From assembly GCA_019115725.1 (NCBI GenBank), contig DXCY01000036.1:1-42185 (forward strand): DNA of 42,185 nt, read 5' to 3'. A program made the translations under genes and the position numbers. The notes under the pieces were generated by a model that saw nothing but the letters and a program-made list of their open reading frames with translations, searched no databases and was not told where the DNA came from. The DNA comes from Candidatus Luteimonas excrementigallinarum. Lineage in GTDB: Bacteria > Pseudomonadota > Gammaproteobacteria > Xanthomonadales > Xanthomonadaceae. Shown piece after piece: positions 22,940 to 42,185 of the stretch; within the stretch, counting starts at the first letter, position 1, and each line of letters begins with the position of its first letter.

Positions 22940-23185
22940 GGCTGGCTCCAAAGGCGATGGGATGAAAACAATGGCGCCAGTTTAGATTCGGGGATGCCGC
23001 TGATTGATTGCATTTCTGGAACAAAGGTTCTTGCTGCTTCCCTTGTGTCCGGCACTTCGCGCGGCTGATTTCCGCCCCTTGAAATATCACTGTCACAACA
23101 AGGGCTTGCCTTGACTGTTATTGGACCGCGGGAGACTATCTTCACCGTGCACCCATCCGCCGACAGGTGCCAGGAGAATGAAAAA

Positions 23186-26100: not shown

Positions 26101-26251
26101 GATCCACTGGGGCTTCAAGGGCGCCGCGCGCAAGGGCTTCGGCTCCAACTCGCTGGGTCCGTTCGTTGGTGATGCCAACATCGAGACGCCGGAGTTCAAG
26201 GCGTACCTGGTGAACATTGAGCGGGCCGCAGACCAGGAGGTGCCGGCATGA
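23186..26251 (+). CDS. fdnG: Formate dehydrogenase-N/O alpha subunit, selenocysteine-containing (Sec at codon 200, 1021 aa)
   Basis: Tat signal SRRSFLK; CTYCSVAC...LCPKG Fe-S motif; DNQARV-TGA(23783-23785)[19 protein letters not shown]; the two track ORFs 23111..23785 and 23798..26251 share a frame; [21 protein letters not shown]. Confidence 0.96.
23786..23828 (+). promoter_or_regulatory. Bacterial SECIS element
   Basis: Immediately 3' of the UGA: lower stem CACGGCC/GGCCGTG, upper stem GG-U(bulge)-GUCCA-GUC-UGGGC-CC with GU in the apical loop, as in E. coli fdhF/fdnG SECIS. Confidence 0.88.
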
Positions 26252-27234
26252 GTGATCAACGCGCCCCCCAGCCGGTGACGGCCGCGGCCAACCCGCCGGT
26301 CCAGCCAATGGCTTCCAACCTGCTGCCCACCGACGTGGTGCTGGCATCGGCCACGGCCGATCTGCCCGCGCCGGAGCGGCAGCTGACCAAGGTGGCCAAG
26401 CTGATCGACGTGTCCCGCTGCATTGGCTGCAAGGCCTGTCAGTCGGCATGCATCGAGTGGAACGACCTGGAGCCGGAGATCGAGGAAAACGTGGGTGTCT
26501 ACGACAACCCGCACGACCTCACGCCGGAGATGTTCACGCTGATGCGCTTCAGCGAGTACGAGAACCCGGATACGGGTGATCTGGAGTGGCTGATCCGCAA
26601 GGACGGCTGCATGCACTGCGAGGATCCGGGCTGCCTGAAGGCCTGCCCGGCTCCGGGTGCGATCGTGCAGTACTCCAACGGCATCGTCGATTTCATCTCC
26701 GAGAACTGCATCGGCTGTGGCTACTGCGTGGCCGGCTGCCCGTTCGATATTCCGCGCATCCACAAGACCGCGCAGGTATCGACCAAGTGCACGCTGTGCT
26801 CCGACCGCGTTGCGGTGGGGCAGGGCCCGGCCTGTGCCAAGGCCTGCCCGACCGAGTGCATCACCTTCGGGCCCAAGGATGAGCAGGTGGCCTTCGCCCA
26901 GGAACGCGTGGCCGACCTCAAGTCGCGCGGCTTCGAGAATGCGGGCCTGTACGACCCGCAGGGCGTGGGCGGCACCCACGTGATGTACGTGCTCCACCAC
27001 GCCGACAAGCCCTCGCTGTATGCGGGCCTGCCGGACGATCCGCAGATCTCCCCGGTGGTGGCGGGCTGGAAGGGCCCGGCCAAGGAAGTGGGCCTGGTGG
27101 CGGCGGGCGTGGCCCTTGCCGGCGCCGCGCTGCACGGCCTGGTGTCGCGGGCCAACAAGGTCAGCGCCGAGGAAGAGGAGCAGGCACAGCAGCTGGTGGA
27201 CAGCAGCGATGACAACGGGAGGCGGGCACCATGA
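26248..27234 (+). CDS. fdnH: Formate dehydrogenase beta (iron-sulfur) subunit
   Basis: [45 protein letters not shown]...CAKACP; [12 protein letters not shown]; C-terminal TM; ATGA overlap with fdnG. Confidence 0.96.
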
Positions 27235-27926
27235 GCAATGATCGCGTCTATTCCGCCCCTGGCGATCACATCGAATCCAAGCGGCCGGTGGTGGTCAGCC
27301 GCTACCGCGGCTTCACCCGGGCCAACCACTGGCTGACCGCGGTGTGCATGATCGTGTTGCTGCTGTCGGGCTTCGCGTTCTTCCACCCCTCGCTGTACGG
27401 GCTGACCAACCTGTTCGGAGGCGGCCAGACCACGCGCTGGCTGCACCCGATCGTGGGCGTGCTGCTGACGGCGAGCTTCCTCGGACTGTTCGTGCAGATG
27501 TGGCGGCTCAACCTGCCGCGTCCGGAGGACGCCGAGTGGAGCCGGAAGATCAAGGATGTGCTCAAGGCCAACGAAGAAGCCCTGCCCGAGGTCGGCAAGT
27601 ACAACGCCGGCCAGAAGGTGGTGTTCTGGGCCATGGCCATCCTGATCCTCGCCATGGTGGTGACCGGGGTCATGATCTGGGAGCAGTACACCGCGCACCT
27701 GTTCTCGATCCCGGTACGTCGGGTGGCCGTGGCGGTGCATGCCATCGCGGCGATCGGCCTGGTGCTGGTCTTCATCGCCCACGTCTATGCGGCCATCTGG
27801 ACCCGGGGCACCATCCGGGCGATGACCCGTGGCACGGTGACCGGTGGCTGGGCGTTCCGTCACCACCGCAAGTGGCTGCGTGAACTGGCCGGCGGCCGCA
27901 AGGTCGGTGGTCCGGAGCAGTCGTGA
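27231..27926 (+). CDS. fdnI: Formate dehydrogenase gamma (cytochrome b) subunit
   Basis: [29 protein letters not shown] heme-ligand His; four TM segments; WAFRHHRKW. Confidence 0.95.
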
Positions 27927-28843
27927 GCGGAATGGAAGAGGAGTTCAAGCCGGATCCGGCCATGATCGGCGGCGTTCCCAAGCCGCCGCTGGCTTTCCTG
28001 CCGGAGCCGGTGAAGCTGTTCCAGACGCGCGGGCGGCGCTTTGCGTTCCTTGCGGAAAGCAACGAATTGGCGCCGTACCTGCGTTTCCTGGCCGAGCTCT
28101 CGCGGCTGCAGGCCCGACTGGCGGTATCGCTGCCGCCGGTCGAGCCGCTGTCGCCGGAGCGTCTGGCCAAGGCGGCCGACGGCGGGATGCCGCCGATCGA
28201 CCGCGGCACGCTGGCGGCCGATCCGGCCCTCGACGCCACCCTGCTGGCCCTGGCCGAACAGGCCGAAGCCATCGATATGCCCGACCAGGCCCGCCAGGCG
28301 CTGGCTGCGGTACGGGCGGCTGACGTTGAACAGCGGCTGTGGCTGCTGTCCAACGTGCTGGGCGACAGCATTCCTGAAGACGCCACCGCGCCGCACCTGT
28401 TCGCCGCTGCGGCGGTGCAGGTGCACCTGGCCCGGCTGGCGGCCACGCTGGACGCCGAGGCGCTGGTGCCGATCAGCACCGGCACCTGTCCGGCCTGTGG
28501 CGGCCGTCCGGTCACCTCTTCGGTGATGGGCGCGCAGGGGATCGAAAGCATCCGCTACGCCAGCTGCGCCGGCTGCGCCACGCAGTGGAACGAGGTGCGG
28601 GTGAAGTGCCTGTGCTGCGGTTCCAACAAGGACGTTCGCTACCGCTCGGTGGAAACCCTCGACGCCACGGTCAAGGCGGAGGCCTGCCGGGAGTGCAATC
28701 GGTGGGTGAAGATCCTGTACCAGGTGAAGAACGCCAGCCTGGACCCGGTGGCCGATGACGTCGGCAGCCTGGGTCTGGATGTGCTGATGAAGGACACCGA
28801 ATTCACCCGCGGTGGCTTCAACCCCTACCTCGTCGGCTACTGA
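27923..28843 (+). CDS. fdhE: Formate dehydrogenase accessory protein FdhE
   Basis: CPACGGRP, RYASCAGCATQW, RVKCLCCG, AEACREC, DPVADDVGSLGLD, GFNPYL. Confidence 0.94.
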   Translation: MSGMEEEFKPDPAMIGGVPKPPLAFLPEPVKLFQTRGRRFAFLAESNELAPYLRFLAELSRLQARLAVSLPPVEPLSPERLAKAADGGMPPIDRGTLAADPALDATLLALAEQAEAIDMPDQARQALAAVRAADVEQRLWLLSNVLGDSIPEDATAPHLFAAAAVQVHLARLAATLDAEALVPISTGTCPACGGRPVTSSVMGAQGIESIRYASCAGCATQWNEVRVKCLCCGSNKDVRYRSVETLDATVKAEACRECNRWVKILYQVKNASLDPVADDVGSLGLDVLMKDTEFTRGGFNPYLVGY

Positions 28844-28877: not shown

Positions 28878-29131
28878 TAGGGTTGCAGGATTGACTGGCG
28901 GGCACGTTGGGTCAGGGTGACGATTTCGGTGCCGTCGCGGGTTTCGACCCGCACCAGGCCGGCGCCTTCGACGCCGCCGATGCTCTCTTCCCCCAGCCAG
29001 GCCAGCGTGCGCATCAGCAGGCTCATGCGGGCGTCCAGGCGCTTGCGCAGGCGCGCCAGGTCGATCCCGTCCGGATGCCGGGCCAGCTCGGCCAGCAGTG
29101 CCTCAGCGAACGACGGCTGCGGGGATGTCAC
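28877..29131 (-). CDS. Small winged-helix-like hypothetical protein
   Basis: 84 aa: LLAELARHPDGIDLARLRKRLDARMSLLMRTLAWLG...GLVRVETRDGTEIVTLTQRAR, resembling HTH plus wing; GTG start overlaps the 3' end of the FdhF/YdeP gene. Confidence 0.6.
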   Translation of the reverse strand: MTSPQPSFAEALLAELARHPDGIDLARLRKRLDARMSLLMRTLAWLGEESIGGVEGAGLVRVETRDGTEIVTLTQRARQSILQP

Positions 29132-31463
29132 GCTGGCTTGGGCGGCTGGCGGCCGCGTCGGGGCGGTGCGGATGAATCAGCACCGGGATGGATTTCGAGG
29201 TTGGCGTGCGGGCGCGTTCGGCAAAGCTCGACAGCGGCACCAGCGGATTGGTCTCGGGGTAGTAGGCGGCCAGGCAGCCGCGGGGAATGTCGTAGGCCGC
29301 CAGCAGGAACCCCTTTGCCGTGCGCTTGATGCCGTCCTCACCCAGGCTTTCCAGATCCACCCGGTCGCCGGCGTCCATGCCCAGCGCGGCGATGTCGTCG
29401 GCGTGGGCGAACAGCACGCGCCGCTCCCCGTGCACCCCGCGGTAGCGGTCATCGAGGCCGTACACGGTGGTGTTGTACTGGTCGTGAGAGCGCACGGTGC
29501 TGAGCACGAACACCGGTTGGCCGCTGTCCGCCCGACCTGCGCGGGCGCGATGGACAGGCGTGCTGGTGGGCACCCGATGGGCCTTGAAAGCGGCCCGGCC
29601 GCTGGCGGTGTTCCAGTGCCGCTCGCGCGCGCCGTTGCCGAGGCGGAAGCCGCCCGGCACCCGTACGCGCTGGTTGAAGTCATGGAAGTCGTCGAACACC
29701 CGCGCAATCAGGTCGCGGATGCGGTCGTAGTCCTCCACCAGCCAGCGCCACTGCACCTGGCTGCGTGCGCCCAGGGTGGCCTCGGCCAGGCGCGCCACGA
29801 TGGCCGGCTCCGACAGCAGGCTGGGATCGGCCGGGGCGTTGATGCCGCCGGACAGGTGCACCATGCTCATCGAGTCCTCCACCGTCACCTGCTGCGGGCC
29901 GGTGGCCTGCATATCGATCTCGGTGCGGCCCAGGCAGGGCAGGATCAGCGCCTCGCGCCCGTGCACCAGGTGGCTGCGGTTGAGCTTGGTGGCCACGTGC
30001 ACGGTGAGGTCGCAGTTGCGCAGGGCGGCGTGGGTGGCGGCGGTATCGGGCGTGGCCGCGGCGAAGTTGCCGCCCATGGCGAAGAACACCTTCGCCTGCC
30101 CGTCGCGCATGGCCTCGATCGCGCCAATGGTGTCGTAGCCCGGCGCGCGCGGCGGCTGGAAGCCGAACACCTCCTCTAGCCGGTCCAGGAACGCCTGCGG
30201 CGGTTTCTCCCAGATCATCATGGTGCGGTCGCCCTGCACGTTGCTGTGTCCGCGCACCGGGCAGGCGCCCGCGCCGGGCCGGCCGATGTGGCCGCCGAGC
30301 AGCAGCAGATTGCAGATCATCTGGATGGTGGCCACCGAGTGCAGGTGCTGGGTGATCCCCATGCCCCAGCAGCAGATCAGGCGTTTCGCGCCCAGCCAGG
30401 TGTCGCCGACCCGGCGGATCGCGTCCTCGTCCAGGCCCGACTCGGCGGTGATCGTGTCCCAGGCCTCGGCGGTGATATCGGCGGCGAAGGCTTCGAAACC
30501 GGTGGTATGGGCGTCGATGAATGCGCGGTCCAGCAGCGAGGGCTGGCCAGCGGCCAGCGCCTCGGCATCGCGCTCCAGGGCATGCTTGATGATGCCCTTT
30601 ACCGCAGCCAGGTCGCCGCCGATCTTCAGCTGCAGGTAGTCCGAGGAGATCCGGGTGGAGCCACCGCGCAGCATCTCCGCCTTGTCCTTGGGATCGGCGA
30701 AGCGCTCCAGTCCGCGTTCGCGCAGCGGGTTGAACGACACGATGGCCGCGCCGCGCTTCGCCGCTTCGCGCAGCTCGCCCAGCATGCGCGGATGGTTGGT
30801 GCCCGGGTTCTGGCCGAAGATGAAGATCGCATCGGCCTGCTCGAAATCGGCCAGCGACACCGTGCCCTTGCCGACGCCGATCTGCTCGCCCAGCGCCACG
30901 CCCGAAGGCTCGTGGCACATGTTTGAGCAGTCGGGAAAATTGTTGGTGCCGAACTCGCGCACGAACAGCTGGTACAGGAACGCCGCCTCGTTGCTGGTGC
31001 GCCCGGAGGTGTAGAACACCGCCTCGTCCGGCGAGGGCAGGGCGTTGAGGTGGCGGGCGATGAGGGCAAAAGCCTCGTCCCACTCCACCGGCACGTAGCG
31101 GTCGCTGCCGGCGTCGTAGCGCATCGGCGTGGTCAGCCGGCCCTGGCCTTCCAGCCAGTGGTCGCTGTAGCCGGAGAGTTCGGCCACGGTGTACTTCGCG
31201 AACAGGTCCGGTCCGGCGCGGTGGCGCGTGGACTCGGCCGCCACCGCCTTGGCGCCGTTCTCGCAGAACTCGAAGGTGGAGGTGTGGTCGCGGTCGGGCC
31301 AGGCGCAGCCGGGGCAGTCGAAGCCGTCGGGCTGGTTCATCGACAGCAGGGTCTTCGCGCCCTTGACCGCCACGTCCTCCTTGCGCAGGTGCGCGGCCAC
31401 GCTGCGCAGCGATGGCCAGCCGCCGGCGGGGCCTTCGAAGGACTGGATGGTTTTCCTGCTCAT
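29103..31463 (-). CDS. FdhF/YdeP family molybdopterin oxidoreductase (Cys-ligated)
   Basis: PAGGWPSL, NQPDGFDCPGCAWPD, FEFCENGAKAV, FYTSGRTSNE, NNFPDCSNMCHE, CPVRGHSNVQGDRT, RSHDQYNTTVYG, YYPETNPLVP; no signal peptide. Start trimmed to ATG 31463. Confidence 0.93.
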   Translation of the reverse strand: MSRKTIQSFEGPAGGWPSLRSVAAHLRKEDVAVKGAKTLLSMNQPDGFDCPGCAWPDRDHTSTFEFCENGAKAVAAESTRHRAGPDLFAKYTVAELSGYSDHWLEGQGRLTTPMRYDAGSDRYVPVEWDEAFALIARHLNALPSPDEAVFYTSGRTSNEAAFLYQLFVREFGTNNFPDCSNMCHEPSGVALGEQIGVGKGTVSLADFEQADAIFIFGQNPGTNHPRMLGELREAAKRGAAIVSFNPLRERGLERFADPKDKAEMLRGGSTRISSDYLQLKIGGDLAAVKGIIKHALERDAEALAAGQPSLLDRAFIDAHTTGFEAFAADITAEAWDTITAESGLDEDAIRRVGDTWLGAKRLICCWGMGITQHLHSVATIQMICNLLLLGGHIGRPGAGACPVRGHSNVQGDRTMMIWEKPPQAFLDRLEEVFGFQPPRAPGYDTIGAIEAMRDGQAKVFFAMGGNFAAATPDTAATHAALRNCDLTVHVATKLNRSHLVHGREALILPCLGRTEIDMQATGPQQVTVEDSMSMVHLSGGINAPADPSLLSEPAIVARLAEATLGARSQVQWRWLVEDYDRIRDLIARVFDDFHDFNQRVRVPGGFRLGNGARERHWNTASGRAAFKAHRVPTSTPVHRARAGRADSGQPVFVLSTVRSHDQYNTTVYGLDDRYRGVHGERRVLFAHADDIAALGMDAGDRVDLESLGEDGIKRTAKGFLLAAYDIPRGCLAAYYPETNPLVPLSSFAERARTPTSKSIPVLIHPHRPDAAASRPSQRDIPAAVVR

Positions 31464-31608
31464 ACCGGAATGATCGTTGCGTGGGGCTGCCCCATCTTCC
31501 CGCGGGGGTGGGGGCAAGTCCATTCGGCGGGCGCCCATGCCGTTTGACCCATGCGCCGCGGCGCGGCAACGTGCAGGCTCGGCCGACTGAGATAACGGAG
31601 GGACGGCC

Positions 31609-33243
31609 TTGCATCGACGTGATTTCCTGACCCTGGGGGGGCTTGGTATCGGCGCCCTGGTGCTGCCGCCTTTCATCGGCCGCGCAATTGCCGCTGAAGA
31701 GCTGATGCTGGCGCTGGACGCCGGGCTCAAGCGCCAGCTGGCGGATGTGGCGCTGGAAGCCGCCACCGGTGGCGGGGCCAGCTACTGCGATGTGCGCATC
31801 GGCCGCTACCTGCGCCAGTTCGTGATGACCCGCGAGGACCGGGTCGAGAACGTGGTCAACGAGGAATCCACCGGCGTTGGCGTGCGGGTGATCGCCAACG
31901 GCGCGTGGGGCTTTGCCGCCACCAGCGAGCTCACCCCGCAGGCCGTGGTGCAGGCCGCGCGCCAGGCCACGGCGATTGCGCGGGCCAATGCCCGCATCCA
32001 GGTTGAACCGGTGCAGCTGGCGCCGGTCCGCGGCGTGGGTGAGGTGAGCTGGCGCACGCCGATCGAACGCAACGCGATGGAAGTGCCGGTGGAGGAAAAG
32101 GTGGCGCTGCTGCTGGGCGTCAACGCCGACGCGATCAATGCCGGCGCCGACTTCGTCAGCTCGCGCATGTTCGCGGTCAACGAGCAGAAGTATTTCGCCA
32201 GCACCGACGGCTCCTATATCGACCAGGACGTGCACCGTATCTGGGCCCCGTTCACGGTCACCGCGGTGGACAAGGTGAGCGGCAGGTTCCGCACCCGCGA
32301 CGGCCTGTCCGCGCCCATGGGCATGGGCTACGAATACCTCGGCGCGGATCCGGCCGGGCGCATCGAACTGCCCGGGGGCGTGGTGGCCTACACCACCTCC
32401 TACGACATGCGCGAGGATGCGGTGGCTGCGGCGAAGCAGGCGCGCGAGAAGCTCTCCGCCCCCTCGGTCGAACCCGGCCGCTACGATCTGGTGCTCGATC
32501 CCAGCCACCTGTTCCTGACCATCCACGAGAACGTGGGACACCCGTTGGAGCTGGACCGCGTGCTCGGCTATGAAGCCAACTACGCCGGCACCAGCTTCGC
32601 TACCGTTGAGCGCATGCGGGAAGGCCTGAAGTACGGCAGCGAGCGGGTGAACTTCTTCGCCGACAAGACCCAGCCCGGCAGCCTCGGCGCCGTGGCGTAT
32701 GACGACGAGGGCGTGAAGTGCAAGCGCTGGGACCTGGTGAAGGACGGCATGCTGGTCGACTACCAGGCCACCCGCGATCAGGCCCACATTCTCGGCAAGA
32801 CCGAATCCGACGGCTGCAGCTACGCCGATTCCTGGTCGACGGTGCAGTTCCAGCGCATGCCCAACGTGTCGCTGGCGCCGGGCAAGGCGCCGCTGACCGT
32901 GGCAGAGATGATTGCGGATGTGGAAGACGGCATCTACATCCACGGGCGCGGTTCGTACTCGATTGACCAGCAGCGCTACAACGCCCAGTTCGGCGGGCAG
33001 CTGTACTACGAGATCAGGAACGGCGAGGTGACCCGGATGCTGGAGGATGTGGCCTACCAGATTCGCACGCCGGAGTTCTGGAACGCCTGCAGCGCGATCT
33101 GTGACGAGCGCGATTTCCGCCTTGGCGGGTCGTTCTTCGACGGCAAGGGGCAGCCTTCGCAGGTGTCCGCGGTGTCGCATGGTTCGGCGACCACCCGGTT
33201 CGACGGCATCAACGTGATCAACACCGCCCGCAGCCTCGGCTGA
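31609..33243 (+). CDS. tldD: TldD-family metalloprotease, paralog 1, with Tat signal
   Basis: TTG start after GGAGGG; MHRRDFL Tat motif and AIA cleavage site; GVGVRVIANGAWGFA, zinc motif HENVGH, YDDEGV, QRMPNVSL, DGKGQP. Confidence 0.9.
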   Translation: MHRRDFLTLGGLGIGALVLPPFIGRAIAAEELMLALDAGLKRQLADVALEAATGGGASYCDVRIGRYLRQFVMTREDRVENVVNEESTGVGVRVIANGAWGFAATSELTPQAVVQAARQATAIARANARIQVEPVQLAPVRGVGEVSWRTPIERNAMEVPVEEKVALLLGVNADAINAGADFVSSRMFAVNEQKYFASTDGSYIDQDVHRIWAPFTVTAVDKVSGRFRTRDGLSAPMGMGYEYLGADPAGRIELPGGVVAYTTSYDMREDAVAAAKQAREKLSAPSVEPGRYDLVLDPSHLFLTIHENVGHPLELDRVLGYEANYAGTSFATVERMREGLKYGSERVNFFADKTQPGSLGAVAYDDEGVKCKRWDLVKDGMLVDYQATRDQAHILGKTESDGCSYADSWSTVQFQRMPNVSLAPGKAPLTVAEMIADVEDGIYIHGRGSYSIDQQRYNAQFGGQLYYEIRNGEVTRMLEDVAYQIRTPEFWNACSAICDERDFRLGGSFFDGKGQPSQVSAVSHGSATTRFDGINVINTARSLG

Positions 33244-33258
33244 TGTGCCAAAAGCCAT

Positions 33259-33287
33259 TTGACGCTCATTCACCCGGCCGCAAGAAT
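33259..33287 (+). promoter_or_regulatory. Putative sigma70 promoter upstream of the second tldD
   Basis: TTGACG-N17-AAGAAT in the 141-bp gap between the two tldD genes. Confidence 0.45.
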
Positions 33288-33384
33288 CGATGCGGCCTGA
33301 CGCCATCCGTCGCGCTATCAATCCGCACCCTCCCATCCCGATCGCCCGCCCTGTGCGCCAGCGATCCAGCACCGGAGACCTGTC

Positions 33385-35019
33385 TTGGACAGACGTGACT
33401 TCCTGGCCCTCAGCGGCCTCGGGCTGGGCGGGCTGGTCCTGCCATCGTGGCTCGGCAAGGCCGTGGCCGCCGATGAGCTGGTGACCGTCCTCGATCCCGC
33501 CATCAAGAAACGCCTGGCCGATACGGCGCTGCAGGCCGCCACCGGTGCCGGTGCCAGCTATTGCGACGTGCGCATCGGCCGCTACCTGCGCCAGTTCGTG
33601 ATGACCCGCGAGGACAAGGTGCAGAACGTGGTCAACGCCGAATCCACCGGCGTCGGCGTGCGGGTGATCGCCGACGGCGCCTGGGGGTTCGCCGCCACCA
33701 ATGACATCAGCCCCGACGCCGTGGCCCGCGCCGCGCGCCAGGCGACCGCGATCGCCAAGGCCAACGCCCGGATCCAGGGCGAGCCCGTGCAGCTGGCCCC
33801 GGTGCAGGGCGTGGGCGAGGTGAGCTGGCGTACGCCGATCCAGCGCAACGCCATGGAAGTGCCGGTCAAGGAAAAGGTGGAGCTGCTGCTGGGCGTCAAT
33901 GCCGCGGCGCTGGGCGCCGGTGCCAGCTTCGTCAATTCCACCCTGTTCGCAGTCAACGAGCAGAAGTACTTCGCCAGCACCGACGGCTCCTATATCGACC
34001 AGGACGTGCACCGCATCTGGGCGCCGATGACCGTCACCGCCATCGACCAGTCCAGCGGCAGGTTCCGCACCCGGGCCGGGCTGTCGGCGCCGATGGGGCT
34101 GGGCTATGAATACTTCGATGCCGATCCCGCGCAGAAATTCGTTTCCCCCAACGGCGTCGTCAACTACGGCCACTCCTACGACATGGTCGAGGACGCGGTG
34201 GCCGCGGCGAAGCAGGCGCGCGAGAAGCTCACCGCGCCGTCGGTGGAGCCGGGCCGCTATGACCTGGTGCTTGATCCCTCGCACACCTGGTTGACCATCC
34301 ATGAATCCGTCGGCCACCCGCTGGAGCTGGATCGCGTGCTCGGCTACGAGGCCAACTACGCCGGCACCAGTTTCGCCACCCTCGACAAGCGCGAGGAAGG
34401 CTTCCAGTACGGCAGCGACCTGGTCACGATCTTCGCCGACAAGACCCAGCCCGGCAGCCTCGGCGCCGTGGCGTATGACGACGAAGGCGTGAAGTGCAAG
34501 CGCTGGGACCTGATCCGCGACGGCATCCTGGTCGACTACCAGACCATCCGCGACCAGGCCCATATCCTCGGCAAGGACGCGTCGGATGGCTGCTGCTACG
34601 CCGATTCCTGGTCGACGGTGCAGTTCCAGCGCATGCCCAACGTGTCCATGGCCCCGGGCAAGGCGCCACTGTCGGTGGAGGACATGATCAAGGACGTCGA
34701 GAACGGCATCTACATCATCGGCGACGGCTCGTTCTCGATCGACCAGCAGCGCTACAACGCGCAGTTCGGCGGCCAGCTGTTCTACGAGATCAAGGACGGT
34801 GAAATCACCGGCATGATCGAGGACGTGGCCTACCAGATCCGCACCCCGGAATTCTGGAACGCCTGCAGCGCGGTCTGCGACGAATCCGACTATCGCCTGG
34901 GTGGCTCGTTCTTCGACGGCAAGGGCCAGCCTTCTCAGGTGTCGGCCGTGTCGCACGGCTCGTCCACCGCCCGCTTCGACGGCATCAACGTGATCAATAC
35001 CGCCCGCTCGCTCGGCTGA
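33385..35019 (+). CDS. tldD: TldD-family metalloprotease, paralog 2, with Tat signal
   Basis: TTG start after GGAG; MDRRDFL Tat motif and AVA cleavage site; HESVGH zinc motif; colinear with paralog 1 (both 544 aa). Confidence 0.9.
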   Translation: MDRRDFLALSGLGLGGLVLPSWLGKAVAADELVTVLDPAIKKRLADTALQAATGAGASYCDVRIGRYLRQFVMTREDKVQNVVNAESTGVGVRVIADGAWGFAATNDISPDAVARAARQATAIAKANARIQGEPVQLAPVQGVGEVSWRTPIQRNAMEVPVKEKVELLLGVNAAALGAGASFVNSTLFAVNEQKYFASTDGSYIDQDVHRIWAPMTVTAIDQSSGRFRTRAGLSAPMGLGYEYFDADPAQKFVSPNGVVNYGHSYDMVEDAVAAAKQAREKLTAPSVEPGRYDLVLDPSHTWLTIHESVGHPLELDRVLGYEANYAGTSFATLDKREEGFQYGSDLVTIFADKTQPGSLGAVAYDDEGVKCKRWDLIRDGILVDYQTIRDQAHILGKDASDGCCYADSWSTVQFQRMPNVSMAPGKAPLSVEDMIKDVENGIYIIGDGSFSIDQQRYNAQFGGQLFYEIKDGEITGMIEDVAYQIRTPEFWNACSAVCDESDYRLGGSFFDGKGQPSQVSAVSHGSSTARFDGINVINTARSLG

Positions 35020-35044
35020 CCGGTACCAAGGAGACTTCCACAAC

Positions 35045-36373
35045 ATGACCATCTTCACCGAAGAGCAGGCCCGCGCCATCCTCGACAAGGTCGTGGCCCT
35101 GTCCACGGCCGACGAATGCACCGCCACCCTGAGCGGCTCGGTCGAGGGCAACATCCGCTTTGCCCGCAACAGCGTGTCCACCAGTGGCGAGGTTGCCAAC
35201 GCCGAACTCGCTGTGCAGGTGGCCTTCGGCAAGCGCGTGGGCACGGCCACCATCAACGAGTTCAGTGACGAGGCCCTGGAACGCGTAGTGCGCCGGGCCG
35301 AAGACCTTGCGCGGCTGGCCCCGGAGAACGCCGAGTTCATGCCCGCCATCGGGCCGCAGCAGTACCGTCCCAGCCCGACATTCAGTGAATCCACCGCGGC
35401 AATCACCCCGGATTTCCGCGCCGGCGTGGCGGCTGATTCCATCGCCCCGTGCCGGCAGCAGAACCTGGTGGCCGCCGGGTTCCTCGAGGACGGGCAGAGC
35501 TTCACCGCGTTTGCCAACAGCAACGGCAACTTCGGCTACCAGCGCGGCACCAGCTTCGATTACACCTGCACCGTGCGGACCGAAGACGGGCAGGGCTCGG
35601 GCTGGGTGGGACGCAACCTGCGCCATGCCAGCGATTTCGACGCCAGCCGCGACGTGGCGGTGGCGATGCGCAAGGCCAGCTCGTCGGCCGGCGCGCGTGC
35701 GCTGGAGCCGGGCAAGTACACGGTGATCCTGGAGCCGGCCGCGGTGGCCGGGCTGGTGTCGTTCATGATGCGCTTCTTCGATGCGCGCAGCGCCGACGAG
35801 GGCCGCAGCTTTCTTTCCAGGCGCGGTGGCGGCAACCGGCTGGGCGAGCAGCTGTTCGACCCGCGGGTGAACGTGATTGCCGATCCTTGGAACGAGGACG
35901 TGCCGGTGATGCCGTGGGACGGCGAGGGCATGCCGCGCGAACGCATGCCGATCATCGAGAACGGCAAGGTGGCCGCGCTGAACTACTCGCGCTACTGGGC
36001 CCAGCAGCAGGGCCAGCGCGCCGTGGGCAGTCCGGGCAACATGATCATGTCGGGCGGCGACAAGTCGACCGGCGAGCTGATTGCCGGCACCGATCGCGGC
36101 GTGCTGGTGACCCGCACCTGGTACATCCGCATGGTGGATCCGCAGACCGTGCTGCTGACCGGCCTGACCCGCGATGGCACGTTCTATATCGAGGACGGGC
36201 AGATCCGCTATCCGATCAAGAACTTCCGCTTCAACGAGTCGCCGGTGATCATGCTCAACAACATCGATGAGCTGGGCCGTCCGGTGCGGGTGGGCGAGGG
36301 CCGGATGCAGATGATGCTGCCGCCGATGCGGCTGCGGGATTTCACCTTCACTTCGCTCTCTGACGCGGTGTGA
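35045..36373 (+). CDS. TldE/PmbA-family partner subunit
   Basis: NIRFARN, LEPGKYTVILEP, ARSADEGRSF, WDGEG, GVLVTRTWYIR, TGLTRDGTF, NFRFNESP; no HExxxH motif and no signal peptide. Confidence 0.88.
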   Translation: MTIFTEEQARAILDKVVALSTADECTATLSGSVEGNIRFARNSVSTSGEVANAELAVQVAFGKRVGTATINEFSDEALERVVRRAEDLARLAPENAEFMPAIGPQQYRPSPTFSESTAAITPDFRAGVAADSIAPCRQQNLVAAGFLEDGQSFTAFANSNGNFGYQRGTSFDYTCTVRTEDGQGSGWVGRNLRHASDFDASRDVAVAMRKASSSAGARALEPGKYTVILEPAAVAGLVSFMMRFFDARSADEGRSFLSRRGGGNRLGEQLFDPRVNVIADPWNEDVPVMPWDGEGMPRERMPIIENGKVAALNYSRYWAQQQGQRAVGSPGNMIMSGGDKSTGELIAGTDRGVLVTRTWYIRMVDPQTVLLTGLTRDGTFYIEDGQIRYPIKNFRFNESPVIMLNNIDELGRPVRVGEGRMQMMLPPMRLRDFTFTSLSDAV

Positions 36374-36427
36374 CCAGGTGGCGCGTCACGTGGCTTCGTG
36401 CGCGTGGCGCGCTCCTGCCATGAAGGC

Positions 36428-37126
36428 ATGAACCGGGCGGATTTCCTCAGGTTGATGTTGGGTGGCGCGGCAGCCCTGGCGCTGCCGCGGCCGCTGCTGG
36501 CGGCAGCTGGGTACGACTTCCGCTTCACCCGCCTGCGCTACGAGTCCGGCGACTGGGACGTGGATGCGCGGATGCCGTCGAACGTCATTACCGCGCTGAT
36601 CGACTACACCAACCTGCGGGTGGATCCCGAGGAGCAGGTGCTGGACCTGGCCGATCCACGCATGCTCACCGCGCCGTTCTGCTACCTGGCCGGGCACAAG
36701 CTGGTGGAGTTCAACCCGGCCGAACGGCGCAACTTCGAACGCTATGTGCGCAACGGCGGCTTCGTCTTCGTCGATGACTGCAACCACGACATCGACGGCC
36801 TGTTCGCGAAGTCGTTCGAGGCGCAGATGGCGTCCATCTTCGGCGCCGATGCCCTGCACAAACTGCCCAACAGCCACGCGCTCTACAACAGCTTCTTCCG
36901 CTTCCCCGACGGCCCGCCGGCCACCAGCTACGAACTCAACGGCTGGGGCGACGACCTGGTGCACGACTATCTCAAGGGCATTGCCATCGACGGCCGCCTG
37001 GGCGTGCTCTACAGCAACAAGGACTATGGCTGCGAATGGGACTACGACTGGCGCAACAAGCGTTTCCTGGCCGAGGACAACACCAGGTTCGCGGTCAACA
37101 TCGTCATCTACGCGCTGACCGCGTGA
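36428..37126 (+). CDS. DUF4159-like protein with Tat-like leader
   Basis: FRFTRLRYESGDWD, PFCYLAGH, YVRNGGFVFVDDC, YSNKDYGCEW, NIVIYALT; leader MNRADFLRLMLGGAAALALPRPLLA. Confidence 0.75.
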   Translation: MNRADFLRLMLGGAAALALPRPLLAAAGYDFRFTRLRYESGDWDVDARMPSNVITALIDYTNLRVDPEEQVLDLADPRMLTAPFCYLAGHKLVEFNPAERRNFERYVRNGGFVFVDDCNHDIDGLFAKSFEAQMASIFGADALHKLPNSHALYNSFFRFPDGPPATSYELNGWGDDLVHDYLKGIAIDGRLGVLYSNKDYGCEWDYDWRNKRFLAEDNTRFAVNIVIYALTA

Positions 37127-37142
37127 ACCACGGAACCCTGCA

Positions 37143-38150
37143 ATGACCGAGCCTTTGACCGAATCCGATGTGCAGCAGCGCCTGGGCGCCCTGGATGGAC
37201 TGCGCGAGGCCATTGGCCGGGCGGTGGTTGGCCAGGACGCGGTGGTCGAGCAGTTGCTGGTAGCCCTGCTGGCCGGCGGCCACTGCATGCTCGAGGGCGT
37301 GCCCGGGCTGGGCAAGACCCTGCTGGTACGGACCCTGGGCCAGGCGCTGGAGCTGGATTTCCGCCGGGTGCAGTTCACCCCGGACCTGATGCCCAGTGAC
37401 ATCCTCGGCACCGAGGTGCTGGAAGAGGAGCACGGCACTGGCCATCGCAGCTTCCGCTTCCAGAAGGGGCCGGTGTTCACCCATCTGCTGCTGGCCGACG
37501 AGCTCAACCGCACCCCGCCACGCACCCAGGCCGCGCTGCTGGAGGCAATGGCCGAGCGCACGGTCAGCTATGCGGGCGTCACCCACGCGCTGCCGGCGCC
37601 GTTCTTCGTGCTGGCCACGCAGAACCCGATTGAACAGGGCGGCACCTATCCGCTGCCCGAGGCCCAGCTGGACCGCTTCCTGCTGCAGCTGCGGGTGGAA
37701 TACCCGGATGAGGCCGAGGAGCTGGCGATTGTTGAACAGACCACCGGTGCCGGTACTGCCGAGGTGCCACGGGTGATGGATGCCGCGGCGGTGCTGGCGC
37801 TGCAGGCGCTGGTACGGCAGGTGCACGTGGGCACGGACCTGATGCAGTGGATCGTGCGCCTGGTGCGGGCCAGCCGTCCCGGCGAAGACGCCCCGGAAAC
37901 CGTGCGCAGCTATGTGAAGTGGGGTGCCGGACCGCGTGCCGCGCAGTCGCTGGTGCTGGCGGCCAAGGCCCGCGCGCTGCTGCATGGCAGGCTGGCCGCC
38001 ACCCGCGACGATGTGGCCGCCCTGGCCGCGCCGGTCATGCGCCATCGTCTGCTACTGTCCTTCGCGGCGGAGGCGGAGGGCGTGCACGCCGACGATGTGG
38101 TTGAAGCGCTGCTGCGCGAGGTGCCGCCGCCGGGCACCGCGGCCGACTGA
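37143..38150 (+). CDS. moxR: MoxR family AAA+ ATPase
   Basis: Walker A GVPGLGKT, RVQFTPDLMPSDI, Walker B LLLADELNR, ATQNPIEQGGTYPLPEAQLDRF, GAGPRA. Confidence 0.95.
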   Translation: MTEPLTESDVQQRLGALDGLREAIGRAVVGQDAVVEQLLVALLAGGHCMLEGVPGLGKTLLVRTLGQALELDFRRVQFTPDLMPSDILGTEVLEEEHGTGHRSFRFQKGPVFTHLLLADELNRTPPRTQAALLEAMAERTVSYAGVTHALPAPFFVLATQNPIEQGGTYPLPEAQLDRFLLQLRVEYPDEAEELAIVEQTTGAGTAEVPRVMDAAAVLALQALVRQVHVGTDLMQWIVRLVRASRPGEDAPETVRSYVKWGAGPRAAQSLVLAAKARALLHGRLAATRDDVAALAAPVMRHRLLLSFAAEAEGVHADDVVEALLREVPPPGTAAD

Positions 38151-38165
38151 TCCGCGGGCGTACGG

Positions 38166-39053
38166 ATGGACTGGGATCCGATCCCGCCGCAGCTACGCGG
38201 CCTGCTGCGCACGCTGCGGATCGGGGCGCGTCGTGCCACGGGCGGGCGTGGGTACGGGTCGCATCGCAGCCGGGAGCGCGGCGCGGGACTGGAATTCGTC
38301 CAGTACCGCGGCTACGAACCCGGCGATGAGCTGCGCCGGATCGACTGGAAACTCTACGCCCGCAGCGACCGGTTCTACGTGCGCGAGGCCGAGCGGGAAA
38401 GTCCGCTGGCCATCTGGGTGCTGGTGGATGCCAGCGCCTCGATGCAGCAGGCCGACGAGGCACGTCCGGACTGGTCGCGCCTGGACGCCGCCAGGGCGCT
38501 GGCCGCATGTGTGTTCGAACTGGCCCTGGCGCAGGGGGATCCATTCGGCCTGGCGCTGACAGGCAACGACGGCCTGTCGCTGCTGCCGCCGGTGGCAGGC
38601 GTCCGCCAGCGAGACCGGCTGCGGATGGCGCTGCACGAGGCCCGTGCCGGCGGCGGCTTTCCCGGGGAAGATCGCCTGGACGTGCTGCGCCAGCGGATCG
38701 GTCCGGATGACGTGGTCGTCGCGCTGGGAGACTTCTTCGATGACAGCGCGATTGCCCTGGCCACAAAGCTGGCCGCAGCGCGGCGTGAGGTGCTGGCCAT
38801 CCAGCTGCTAACGGCGGGCGAGCGCGATTTCCCGTTCACTGACGGACGGCGTTTCCGCGATCCGGAGACCGGTGCGGAGCTGCCCGGCGACGGCCCGGCC
38901 ATGCGGGAAGGGTTCCTTGCCCGCTTCGGCGCCGCCCAGGGCAGGCTGCAGGCGCGCTTTGATGCCGCCGGCATCCGCCATGCCGTCCACGTGCTGGATG
39001 AACCTTTGGAGCAGCCGCTGCGGCGTCTGTTCGGCCGGGCAGGGCGGCCATGA
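38166..39053 (+). CDS. DUF58 family vWA-like protein
   Basis: GSHRSRERGAGLEFVQYRGYEPGDELRRIDWKLYARSDR, MIDAS-like VDASASM, GDFF, FRDPETG. Confidence 0.92.
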   Translation: MDWDPIPPQLRGLLRTLRIGARRATGGRGYGSHRSRERGAGLEFVQYRGYEPGDELRRIDWKLYARSDRFYVREAERESPLAIWVLVDASASMQQADEARPDWSRLDAARALAACVFELALAQGDPFGLALTGNDGLSLLPPVAGVRQRDRLRMALHEARAGGGFPGEDRLDVLRQRIGPDDVVVALGDFFDDSAIALATKLAAARREVLAIQLLTAGERDFPFTDGRRFRDPETGAELPGDGPAMREGFLARFGAAQGRLQARFDAAGIRHAVHVLDEPLEQPLRRLFGRAGRP

Positions 39054-40228
39054 GCCTGGGCCTGCTGCTTCCCGCCGCGTTGGCGGCGCTGGGCGCGCTG
39101 CTGGTGCCGCTGCTGATCCACCTGGCCCGGCGCAGCCAGCTGGTGCCCACGCCCTTTGCCGCCCTGCGCTGGCTGCGCCAGGCGGCGCGCCCACAGCGGC
39201 GCGTGCGGCTGGAGGAATGGCCGCTGCTGTTGCTGCGCCTGCTGCTGCTGGCCCTGCTGGCGCTGTGGCTGGCCCGGCCGGTGCTGCACGGCGAGCAGGA
39301 GGCAGCCGGGTGGACGGTTGCGGTGCCGGGCGTGGATACGGCCCAGCTGGCAGACATGGCCGGAAGTGCCGAGCCGCCGCGCTGGCTGGCGCCCGGCTTC
39401 CCGCCGCTGGATGGCCCCGTGCCCTCAGGCCCGGTGTCCGTTGCCAGCCTGCTGCGCCAGCTGGATGCGGAACTGCCCCCCGGCACGGCGCTCGCCGTGG
39501 CCGTGCCAGAGTGGCTGCACGGCATGGATGCGCAGCGGCCGGCGTTGTCGCGCCCGGTGGCCTGGCACGTGTTGGGCGGTGGGATGGAACCGCCAGCACC
39601 TTCCGATCAGCAGCCACCGGCGCTGCAGGTACGTCATGACGACGGCAGCGCTGAGGCGTTGCGATATCTGCGCGCGGCAGCCGCCGCCTGGCATGGCGCG
39701 GACGAATTGTCGGATCTCCCTTTCCAGCTGGCGCCGGCCAGCCAGCCGGTGGAACCCGACGCCACCCACCTGGTGTGGCTGGCCAACGCGCCGGTGCCGG
39801 CGGCGGTCCTCGACTGGGTCCATCAGGGCGGCGTGCTGCTGGCAGCGGCGGACAGCGGGCTGGAGCCGCCGTCGGGCGCCGTTGCCTGGTGGCGCAGCCG
39901 GAACGGTGATGTGCTGGTGGAAGGCGTGCCCTATGGGCAGGGCCGTCTGCTGCGTTTCACCCGACCGCTGGCGCCGGCGCATATGCCCGAGCTGCTGGAT
40001 CCCGACTTTCCACAGCGGCTGCAGCAGGTGCTGCTGCCGCCGCCCCCCGGACCGGCAACGGTTGCCGCGTCCGCCCACGCGCCGCTGCAGGTGGCCACTG
40101 CATGGCCGCAGGCTCCGCGTGAACTGCGCCCGTGGCTGGCGCTGCTGATCGGCTTGCTGTTCCTGCTTGAGCGCTGGCTGGGGACCTCGCCACGGCGGCC
40201 GGCCTTTGCGGCGGGAGGCCAGCCATGA
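39050..40228 (+). CDS. BatA-domain membrane protein
   Basis: LVPLLIHL...FAALRWL...LLLLRLLLLALLALWLARP N-terminal double-TM BatA signature; C-terminal TM WLALLIGLLFLLERWL; ATGA overlap with DUF58. Confidence 0.82.
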   Translation: MSLGLLLPAALAALGALLVPLLIHLARRSQLVPTPFAALRWLRQAARPQRRVRLEEWPLLLLRLLLLALLALWLARPVLHGEQEAAGWTVAVPGVDTAQLADMAGSAEPPRWLAPGFPPLDGPVPSGPVSVASLLRQLDAELPPGTALAVAVPEWLHGMDAQRPALSRPVAWHVLGGGMEPPAPSDQQPPALQVRHDDGSAEALRYLRAAAAAWHGADELSDLPFQLAPASQPVEPDATHLVWLANAPVPAAVLDWVHQGGVLLAAADSGLEPPSGAVAWWRSRNGDVLVEGVPYGQGRLLRFTRPLAPAHMPELLDPDFPQRLQQVLLPPPPGPATVAASAHAPLQVATAWPQAPRELRPWLALLIGLLFLLERWLGTSPRRPAFAAGGQP

Positions 40229-42185
40229 GTCCGGCGCTGCGCCTGCGCCAGGCCATGCGCGCCGCCCGCCTTCGGGTGGTGCTGTCCAGTGCGCTGCTGG
40301 TGCTGCCGCCGGTCGTGGCCGCCACGGCGCTGGCATGGCGGCTGGGCGGAATGGCGGGGGCAATGATGACGGCTGCGGCCGGATTGCTCGTGGCCACCGC
40401 GGTCACCGCCTGGCGTGCCCGGCGTATCGATACACGCTGGCTGGCGCGGGCGCTGGATGCGCATCGCGGCGACATGGAGGACAGCGCCGCGCTGCTGTTC
40501 GCGCCGCGTGCGGAACTTGGCGCCCTGCAGCGATTGCAGCGCGAGCGCCTGCGCCAGCGTCTGGCCAGCGCGTCCATGCCCGACATGCGGCCGCCCTGGC
40601 CACGGCGCGCGGCGTGGCTGACCGCGGCTGGCGCGCTGCTGATGGCCTCGGCCGCCGTGCTGTGGCCGGGCGAGGTCGACCGCGATGGCATGCGCTCCGC
40701 GCCCGCGCAGTCCACGCCGGCCGGCGTGCCGACGCTGCAGTCATGGCGGTTGTACATCGAGCCGCCGGCCTACACCGGGCTGGAACCGCGGGATGCCGAG
40801 GCGCTGGATGTGGAGGCTCCGGAAGGCTCGCGGCTGCGCTGGACCCTGCGCTTTGCCCCGGATCCGAAGGGCGCCGTGCTCGCCTTCCACGACGGCGATG
40901 AAATCGAACTTGAACCGGCGGATGGCGACTGGAGCGCGGAGCACCTGCTGGCCCGCTCCGCGCTGTATCGCATCCTGCCTGCGGGCGGTGCAGCGCAGCC
41001 CGCGCCGCCGCTGTACCGGCTGGATGCCGTCGCCGACCAGCCGCCGTCGGTGCGGGTGCTGCTGCCCGAGCAGAGCCTCAGCCTGATGCAGCCGGGGCAG
41101 CGCCAGTGGCCGCTGGCGTTCGAGGCCAGCGATGACTACGGCGTGGCCGCCGAGGCCACCCTGCATCTGACCCTGGCCCAGGGCGCCGGAGAGAACATCA
41201 CCTTCGCCGAAAGTACCCGCACCCTCCGCGGCAGCGGGCCACCGACCCGCCGGCGCTTTGAAGCCACGCTCGATCCGCTCGCACTTGGCCTGCAGCAGGG
41301 GGAAGACCTGGTGGTCCGCCTGGAGGTGCGGGACAACCGCACGCCGGCTGCCCAGCGCGGCAGGAGCCCGAGCCTGATCCTGCGCTGGCCGCCCGCGCCG
41401 CCGCCCGACGTGGACGGACTGGACGCCTTCGCCCGCGACGTGCTGCCCGCGTATTTCCGCAGCCAGCGGCAGATCATCATCGATGCCGAGGCGTTGCTGG
41501 AGCAGCAGCCGGCACTGGCGCCGGCGCAGTTCACCGGCCGCTCCGATGCCCTCGGTGTCGATCAGCGCGTGCTGCGCCTGCGCTACGGCCAGTTCCTGGG
41601 CGAGGAGGCCGAGGAAGGCCCGGGTCTGCCGATTGACGATGCGGCGCCGGTGCCACCGCCGACCCTGCTGCCGATCGACGATTTCGGCCAGGAGCCCGCT
41701 GCGCTTCCGGCGCCGGAAAGCGAGGGGCAGGGCCACAAATCCGAGGCCGGCATGACCGACCTGCACGACCATGGCGATGACCGCGGACAGCCGCGTGAGG
41801 CTGGCGCCTTCGGCAGCATGGAGGGCGTGCTGGAGGAATACGCCCACCTGCACGACCTGCCCGAGGCCGCCACCCTGCTGGATCCCCGTACCCGTGAAAC
41901 CCTGCGCCAGGCGCTGGGTGAGATGTGGCAGTCCGAACTGGCCCTGCGTCAGGGTGATCCGGCGCGGGCGCTGCCATCCGCCTATCGCGCGCTGCGTCAT
42001 ATCCAGCAGGTCCGCGAGGCCGATCGCATCTACCTGGCCCGGGTAGGCAGCCAGCTGCCGCCGATTGACCAGAGCCGCCGCCTGCAGGGCGAGCGCGATG
42101 GCATCGCCCGCCGGGCGCTGGCGCCCACTGCGCGTGAGCCGGCCGGGCAGGAGCTGGTGGTGCTGTGGCAGGCCATGGCGGAGGC
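40225..42185 (+). CDS. Large membrane-anchored protein (DUF4175-like), truncated by window end
   Basis: Manual reading from ATG 40225 (ATGA overlap with batA): MSPALRLRQAMRAARLR...MEDSAALLF...PPAYTG...DQPPSVRV...ASDDYGV...PAYFRSQRQIIIDAE...DQRVLRLRYGQFLGEE...AHLHDLPEAATLLDP...ADRIYLARVG; no stop seen in this frame, hence missing from the ORF track. Confidence 0.78.
   Translation, partial: MSPALRLRQAMRAARLRVVLSSALLVLPPVVAATALAWRLGGMAGAMMTAAAGLLVATAVTAWRARRIDTRWLARALDAHRGDMEDSAALLFAPRAELGALQRLQRERLRQRLASASMPDMRPPWPRRAAWLTAAGALLMASAAVLWPGEVDRDGMRSAPAQSTPAGVPTLQSWRLYIEPPAYTGLEPRDAEALDVEAPEGSRLRWTLRFAPDPKGAVLAFHDGDEIELEPADGDWSAEHLLARSALYRILPAGGAAQPAPPLYRLDAVADQPPSVRVLLPEQSLSLMQPGQRQWPLAFEASDDYGVAAEATLHLTLAQGAGENITFAESTRTLRGSGPPTRRRFEATLDPLALGLQQGEDLVVRLEVRDNRTPAAQRGRSPSLILRWPPAPPPDVDGLDAFARDVLPAYFRSQRQIIIDAEALLEQQPALAPAQFTGRSDALGVDQRVLRLRYGQFLGEEAEEGPGLPIDDAAPVPPPTLLPIDDFGQEPAALPAPESEGQGHKSEAGMTDLHDHGDDRGQPREAGAFGSMEGVLEEYAHLHDLPEAATLLDPRTRETLRQALGEMWQSELALRQGDPARALPSAYRALRHIQQVREADRIYLARVGSQLPPIDQSRRLQGERDGIARRALAPTAREPAGQELVVLWQAMAE

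Follow-up and report, generated by a model that had tools for sequence, protein, structure and literature searches.

A conserved operon linking a predicted exported TldD/TldE peptidase to a MoxR-DUF58 membrane module, with a possible role in periplasmic metal insertion

We use gene neighbourhoods, motifs, genome surveys and predicted structures to study an operon of Candidatus Luteimonas excrementigallinarum that lies on contig DXCY01000036.1 of assembly GCA_019115725.1 (2.57 Mb, 89% complete). The window is this entire contig (C254 in our numbering; 42,185 nucleotides), and from position 31609 onward it encodes two copies of the peptidase subunit TldD, the partner subunit TldE, a DUF4159 protein, the AAA+ ATPase MoxR, a DUF58 protein and two membrane proteins. 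We find that these genes form a real, conserved and uncharacterised system built from known families, and that a matching operon is already in print without a function. The TldD/TldE pair is predicted to leave the cytoplasm on the twin-arginine translocation (Tat) signal of TldD. Our preferred explanation, to which we give a probability of roughly 0.4, is that the exported enzyme is a client of the MoxR-DUF58 membrane machine, which would load it with its catalytic metal on the periplasmic side.

The operon and its boundaries

Eight open reading frames (ORFs) on the + strand follow each other in the order tldD1-tldD2-tldE-DUF4159-moxR-DUF58-batA-DUF4175, closing the window. Their spacing is tight (15-141 nt; in order 141, 25, 54 to the likely ATG at 36428, 16 and 15 nt), and the last two junctions are ATGA overlaps at 39050 and 40225. 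The first three genes match the three PmbA_TldD domains of Pfam, all above gathering cut-offs, and the other five match DUF4159, AAA_3 (MoxR), DUF58, BatA-N and DUF4175. The initial annotation, made from the letters of the window, had described these eight co-oriented genes, and their positions, order and families agree with what we find; its list stops short at the far end, where the DUF4175 gene is truncated by the contig end and a ninth gene was missed. In relatives this ninth gene, which encodes a membrane protein of about 600 aa with no Pfam match above cut-off, follows DUF4175, and its C-terminal half opens another contig of the host (C106:6-815, 70% identity). TldD2 of the window is 96% identical to a TldD of a named Luteimonas genome. 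The host also carries a canonical tldD/tldE pair, with the usual Cys ligand, on contig C250, and the window operon is therefore a second, specialised system. A promoter and terminator scan of the locus gave matches at chance level only.

Conservation across genomes

DUF4159 accompanies the tld genes in 69 of 79 fetched relative loci, and 8 of the other 10 end at contig ends; because so many loci pair the two, the gene order is far beyond chance. A second survey, covering 163 loci from genomes and metagenomes, follows an 18-residue insertion in TldD (aa 247-264 of TldD2, 34123-34176, + strand) that marks the module-linked clade and is missing in a module-free sister clade. Counting only loci that leave 2.5 kb or more of room, the stand-alone DUF4159 of subtype B (DUF4159-B) and moxR lie near the long-insert TldD in 88 of 97 and near the short sister form in 0 of 14. 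Among the 9 long-clade loci where the two genes are not nearby, 6 belong to genomes with DUF4159-B elsewhere and the other 3 are metagenome contigs. We had also considered whether the insertion correlates with the module independently, and rejected this, as long-insert TldD forms a single clade.

The same genes are present or absent together in genome samples, in which kin are not independent, three positive genomes stand in two samples and six positives fed the DUF4175 profile. Among 181 genomes of the host's order, TldD is found in 50 and the DUF4175 domain in 48, all 48 inside the 50 and 43 on one contig; in both TldD-only genomes tldD is cut at a contig end, and none of the TldD-negative genomes has the DUF4175 subtype. 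For Bacteroidota, one set of 9 out of 151 genomes has this TldD clade, DUF4159-B and the His-type DUF4175 domain, the markers being co-present in G298, G322 and G334 though on separate contigs, and for Pseudomonadota one set of 4 out of 201 has TldD, DUF4159-B and the DUF4175 subtype. The pattern is that of one system kept or lost as a whole, across two phyla. The neighbourhood survey and the matched presence and absence thus bear out the earlier proposal of one conserved functional unit.

Arrangements vary in detail. In L073, L105, L136, L141, L143, L144, L150, L152, L154, L163 and L168, tldD is preceded by the ninth gene or by the whole module, and among these DUF4159 is sometimes on the strand opposite moxR. 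One locus, L036, is labelled Nocardiopsis yanglingensis; it matches Stenotrophomonas loci in order and in how identical its proteins are to those of the window, and is probably assembly contamination.

A published study adds expression data from a relative. The nine-gene operon NIPOLPBK_01784-01792 of Stenotrophomonas maltophilia, which like the window system has three genes annotated as TldD/PmbA and one as MoxR, is called 'not-yet-characterized' and reported as down-regulated in biofilm, the three TldD/PmbA genes and three downstream genes falling by log2 2.1-2.8 in S. maltophilia 454 (PMC7688217). We identify this operon with the present system from its gene content and from fetched S. maltophilia loci with the window's order, not from sequence. 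The initial annotation was unaware of its description in print. The data support co-regulation of the tld and membrane genes, and the sections of PMC7688217 that deal with the operon propose no export, metal or mechanism. Public RNA runs, viewed for co-transcription of the genes, yielded contigs only, with flat depth and the divergent upstream gene covered too, and DNA carry-over is possible there. No paper joining TldD with MoxR and DUF58, or with MoxR in Xanthomonas, turned up in the full-text literature searched, which assigns the combination no function, as the initial annotation had said; subscription papers on MoxR, RL3499-RL3502 and TldD/TldE are outside its coverage.

The TldD/TldE peptidase

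Both TldD proteins of the window (TldD1, 544 aa, 31609-33243; TldD2, 544 aa and 80% identical to it, 33385-35019; both + strand) begin with RRDFL followed by a hydrophobic stretch. Both have a His-His-Asp metal site, made up of HExxGH at residues 306-311 (HENVGH in TldD1, HESVGH in TldD2) and Asp511 in DGKGQP, which takes the place of the Cys454 ligand of E. coli and is assigned as third ligand by motif (DGK against CGK of canonical TldD). The initial annotation had missed this exchange of ligands; an Asp variant of Cys454 is known for Gemmatimonas (PMC5810440). The HExxGHxxExD and DGK motifs are kept in all 207 long-clade TldD proteins; of these, a strict twin-arginine motif is seen in 187 and a K/R variant in 12, and 8 have neither. 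The partner TldE (PmbA; 442 aa, 35045-36373, + strand) has neither signal peptide nor HExxH. Across 152 TldE proteins HExxH is never present, and the sole RR match sits in a spurious upstream extension. The host genome encodes TatC (contig C185). Judging by these motifs, TldE would be co-exported bound to TldD, and the pair is predicted to cross the membrane on the Tat signal of TldD. The earlier claim of Tat export stands in this form for TldD with its signal-less TldE.

We predict a heterodimeric peptidase acting on unfolded peptides, which is a property of the family. With E. coli TldD/TldE (PDB 5NJ5 series; PMC5810440, in the parts describing the structure) the window proteins have in common the three Pfam domains, HExxH plus ExD, a Lys after the third ligand and a dead TldE partner. 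They differ from it in the Tat signal, in Asp instead of Cys454, in the 18-residue insertion, in having often two or three TldD paralogues, in the linked MoxR module and in scores that fall well short of the cut-offs of the NCBIfam TldD and PmbA models. Against the NCBIfam equivalog for the E. coli-type cytoplasmic TldD (PRK10735), for example, the score is 81-91 bits with a cut-off of 513, and the export signal likewise sets these proteins outside that type.

The two TldD copies differ at the GxGS position, which has Arg in TldD1 and Asp in TldD2. One Asp copy and one Arg copy are found in 55 of 71 loci with at least two TldD genes, mostly Lysobacterales kin, and the pairing recurs in a separate duplication (L062). 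Longer arrays, with two or three tldD and one or two tldE, occur in L102, L105, L139, L163, L076 and L079, and their paralogues are often Asp/Arg at GxGS. In the window, tldD1 and tldD2 (31609-35019; about 82% overall DNA identity) share four identical runs of 44-55 nt, possibly traces of gene conversion. A rule by which Asp replaces Cys because of export was tried on 72 full-length representatives out of 150 (78 fragments or motif-less proteins left out; kin not independent) and rejected, since a Tat motif is present in 7 of 8 Asp proteins but also in 6 Cys proteins (one of them a false match).

A candidate third subunit

The DUF4159-B protein (232 aa from the likely ATG, 36428-37126, + strand) has the leader MNRADFL, a degenerate Tat-like signal with a single arginine, and the invariant motifs DDCNHD, ELNGWGDD and GCEWD. 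Its mean column identity among relatives is 81%, the same as for TldD (81%). Leaders in 98 relatives divide into 33 with RR, 28 with a single Arg, 9 with another start and 28 without room for any signal, the last being mostly Bacteroidota where named; other forms of DUF4159 have a Sec-like or internal signal. The simplest reading of the signal-less proteins is that they are exported riding on TldD/TldE, that is, as a third subunit, the alternative being that they stay cytoplasmic in those genomes. A complex prediction of TldD, TldE (residues 200-442) and DUF4159 from 40-row alignments scored 0.00 against a mark of 0.32 and weighs neither way.

The structure model of DUF4159 has a flavodoxin/GATase-I/GIFT-like fold and aligns with Hoch_4089 (PDB 4I66; Z 20.3, rmsd 2.7, 181 residues aligned), itself uncharacterised and without the Cys/His motifs of subtype B, and with IFT52N (Z 9.9, rmsd 3.7, 168 aligned). 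The fold shared with the GIFT/GATase-I-like domains of IFT52N and OST48 points to no function. Some form of DUF4159 is present in 108 of 151 Bacteroidota genomes, and G240, G320, G332 and G237 have, in addition to the common one, an extra pair of DUF4159 genes of other subtypes.

The membrane module and a putative metal-binding arm

MoxR (37143-38150, + strand), a cytoplasmic AAA+ ATPase, has intact Walker A (GVPGLGKT), Walker B (LLADELNR), sensor and Arg-finger motifs. It is followed by a vWA-like DUF58 protein (38166-39053, + strand) that has a DASAS motif and no membrane helix and is predicted to be the cytoplasmic adaptor of MoxR. This pair, an intact AAA_3 ATPase and then a DUF58 gene, is what defines an MRP-type module in the summary given by the review PMC12067865; the same definition also calls for a membrane protein downstream whose vWA domain bears a MIDAS, and this is missing here, with no VWA Pfam match. 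The BatA-N double-transmembrane protein (39050-40228, + strand), for which a periplasmic domain and a C-terminal helix are predicted, has no DxSxS motif. That motif is found in 0 of 51 BatA and 1 of 36 ninth-gene proteins of this system, compared with 12 of 12 RL3502-type proteins of a TldD-free module of alphaproteobacterial type; the membrane partners may have a degenerate vWA fold.

The DUF4175-like protein (40225-42185, + strand, cut by the contig end; 737 aa in the relative L001) has three N-terminal membrane helices, after which a periplasmic region with a four-helix bundle is predicted. On this bundle sits a candidate metal-binding arm (41452-41856, + strand), in which the helices YFRSQRQ and RLRYGQFLGEE, whose RSQRQ and RYGxFxGEE stretches are invariant, accompany a disordered, His/Asp/Glu-rich loop and the motif HLHD (41845-41856). 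In the 29 of 49 sequences where the loop can be delimited by pattern, His makes up 8.5% of the loop (214 of 2530 residues) and 1.2% elsewhere (229 of 19034), and HxHD is present in 45 of the 49. The loop and HxHD occur in none of 5 DUF4175 proteins from other loci, two of which are partial frames. His/acid tracts are typical of metal-binding accessory proteins, and this is the only such feature specific to the system, predicted to be periplasmic. A model of the DUF4175 C-terminal part (pLDDT 74.8, pTM 0.45) gave generic four-helix bundles only in a fold search (best Z 13.1), with no Foldseek match at E 0.001 and no metal-site homologue. At the C-terminal helix of the ninth-gene protein the charge bias runs contrary to the topology (3.1 before and 1.4 after, n=21).

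A related module helps to place these differences. In 40 of 44 DUF4159-positive Pseudomonadota, DUF4159 is fused to a BatA-N protein of about 940 aa in a moxR-DUF58 operon, and 19 of 19 fetched loci of this type, 20 kb each, contain no tld gene. We take these loci to be the arrangement of Rhizobium leguminosarum RL3499-RL3502 (cmdA-D), and presume the label 'RL3501/RL3502-type' and the domain make-up that goes with it. Both kinds of operon have moxR-DUF58-BatA-N, a DUF4159 domain and a GATase1-like membrane protein as last gene, which in the fused type is similar to our ninth gene (HHalign 97%, E 3e-11, 379 columns). The fused type has DUF4159 behind an internal signal-like helix, an intact vWA DxSxS motif and a distant DUF4175 subtype without the His loop, whereas the window has a stand-alone DUF4159 and the reverse of the other two. 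The loss of the vWA motif and the gain of the His loop are two differences that point the same way. Since the ninth gene has its homologue in the last gene of the fused operons and BatA shares only its N-terminal part with them, we regard the module as a rebuilt relative of those operons. In the fused proteins of L082-L100, DUF4159 comes after a hydrophobic segment inside the protein that ends with an AxA-like motif, which suggests release by signal peptidase as a soluble periplasmic domain.

Possible metal insertion in the periplasm

How would such a machine serve the peptidase? In the scheme that we prefer, TldD would pick up its signal-less partner TldE, and probably DUF4159 as well, while still in the cytoplasm, and would ferry them through Tat, one or more TldD paralogues sharing a single TldE. 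The DUF4175-like, BatA-N and ninth-gene proteins would form an inner-membrane complex whose His/acid loop and HxHD capture a divalent metal, and MoxR, via DUF58, would act on short cytoplasmic loops of these proteins, driving transfer of the metal into the His-His-Asp site of TldD. Once active, the enzyme would remove residues from the N-terminus of unfolded periplasmic peptides, the activity described for E. coli TldD/TldE in the cytoplasm (PMC5810440).

The closest tested precedent is the methanol dehydrogenase system, where MxaR (a MoxR protein), MxaS and MxaACKL are required for Ca2+ insertion into the periplasmic enzyme, according to the portion of PMC12276312 that treats them. As there, a MoxR ATPase, a vWA-type adaptor and auxiliary proteins are encoded with an exported metalloenzyme; the client is another one, and in place of a DxSxS-bearing vWA membrane protein the window has DUF4159 and the His-loop DUF4175. 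The likeness is one of gene make-up and client type. We favour loading in the periplasm over loading in the cytoplasm because the only system-specific putative metal feature is predicted to be periplasmic and because this precedent loads a periplasmic enzyme; the earlier suggestion that MoxR/DUF58 insert the metal in the cytoplasm is for these reasons not favoured.

A bolder version, which strikes us as rather doubtful, makes the module a trans-envelope metallochaperone. Here the MoxR motor would use DUF58 and the three membrane proteins to move a periplasmic His-rich arm. Standing in for the usual vWA metal site, this arm would activate the three-subunit TldD-TldE-DUF4159 enzyme only after export, as an ATP-gated safety catch for a promiscuous peptidase. 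In Bacteroidota two passengers would leave on a single TldD signal.

Several points weigh against metal insertion in the periplasm. Tat substrates normally take up their cofactors before export. The periplasmic topology comes from hydropathy and a modest charge bias (2.9 against 1.6 K/R), and the His content of the loop is uneven, at 1-11 per 40 aa. Long-insert TldD is one clade, which means a single origin of the link, and what the surveys tally is joint retention and joint loss rather than independent origins, with a DUF4175 profile built partly from six positive genomes. The sister clade, with a Tat signal and mostly an Asp ligand, has DUF4159-B or moxR in none of its 14 loci with room and no recurrent replacement neighbour besides tld-overlapping frames and small kin groups; both subtype markers are also missing from the genomes of four Asp-type TldD (G218, G223, G228, G337) and one Cys-type (G253). 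An exported TldD can therefore exist without this machine. The part of PMC5810440 on E. coli TldD/TldE, finally, mentions no metal-insertion helper.

Other explanations

The same genes could instead feed the peptidase with substrate, MoxR/DUF58 supplying power across the membrane while periplasmic domains capture proteins, unfold them and thread their free N-termini into TldD/TldE, so that the whole would amount to an AAA+ protease working across the membrane in envelope quality control. ATP is absent from the periplasm, and the co-occurrence of TldD and DUF4175 fits this explanation as well. The narrow channel of TldD/TldE takes only unfolded peptides, as described for the E. coli enzyme (PMC5810440), and the related cmd operon affects the envelope and growth on complex media in the results reported in PMC5700661 and PMC4255674. 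We nevertheless think it unlikely: it leaves the subtype-specific His/acid loop and HxHD unexplained, the TldD-free module has no tld gene in any of the 19 fetched loci, and the MoxR precedents in the sections of the literature cited here are maturation factors.

Somewhat less probable again is a role on the cytoplasmic side, with MoxR/DUF58 folding, assembling or metal-loading TldD, TldE and DUF4159 before Tat and the membrane proteins merely anchoring the enzyme. MoxR and DUF58 are cytoplasmic, folded complexes are what Tat exports, and the Mycobacterium tuberculosis MoxR1 is reported as a RipA chaperone for Tat transport (as cited in the review PMC12067865). The gene pair moxR-DUF58, however, accompanies the three membrane genes in all complete arrangements that we examined, rearranged ones included, and also pairs with homologous membrane genes in TldD-free loci, while the sister Tat-TldD clade has no linked MoxR and the putative metal arm is predicted to lie outside the cytoplasm.

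The direction of service might also be reversed, so that the module serves another client and TldD/TldE matures, trims or clears one of its components or products, for example DUF4159. This would suit the occurrence of MoxR-DUF58-BatA-DUF4159 modules without TldD (the fused form of 40 in 44 DUF4159-positive Pseudomonadota and the 108 in 151 Bacteroidota with some DUF4159), and DUF4159-B, whose conservation equals that of TldD, contains invariant Cys, His and Asp residues that might make up a separate site. Yet in the loci viewed no further conserved gene stood out beside the operon, and the DUF4175 subtype never occurs without TldD in the searched genomes; we judge this improbable. Least probable is that nothing but co-regulation joins these neighbours, so that a periplasmic peptidase serving peptide nutrition has no mechanistic tie to the envelope module in its operon. 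This would accord with the split genes of some Bacteroidota (9 of 97 long-clade loci with room are without DUF4159-B and moxR nearby) and with the module-free sister clade, but not with DUF4159-B elsewhere in the genome for 6 of those 9, the matched presence and absence across patchy lineages, or the 28 of 98 DUF4159-B without room for a signal, for which co-export with TldD is the easiest explanation.

Neighbouring genes

Upstream of the operon, a gene for a molybdopterin oxidoreductase (FdhF/YdeP-like; 29103-31472, - strand) diverges from tldD1, the two starts lying about 135 nt apart. Before it lies a formate dehydrogenase operon, fdoG-H-I-fdhE (23183-28843, + strand), whose large subunit has a Tat signal. 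Under table 11 an in-frame TGA (23783-23785) splits fdoG into two ORFs, and its context, NQARV*HGPTV, is as expected for selenocysteine.

Significance

MoxR-DUF58-BatA operons occur widely and mutants in them show envelope phenotypes, and most of the operons are without a known client. Here the likely client sits inside the operon, is an enzyme open to simple assays, and is retained or lost with the module in two phyla, so that the question of what such machines do across the inner membrane becomes directly testable. A protease class characterised in its cytoplasmic E. coli form would also have a periplasmic form, in common soil, water and plant-associated bacteria, and a poorly understood class of bacterial chaperone machines would gain a concrete client to test.

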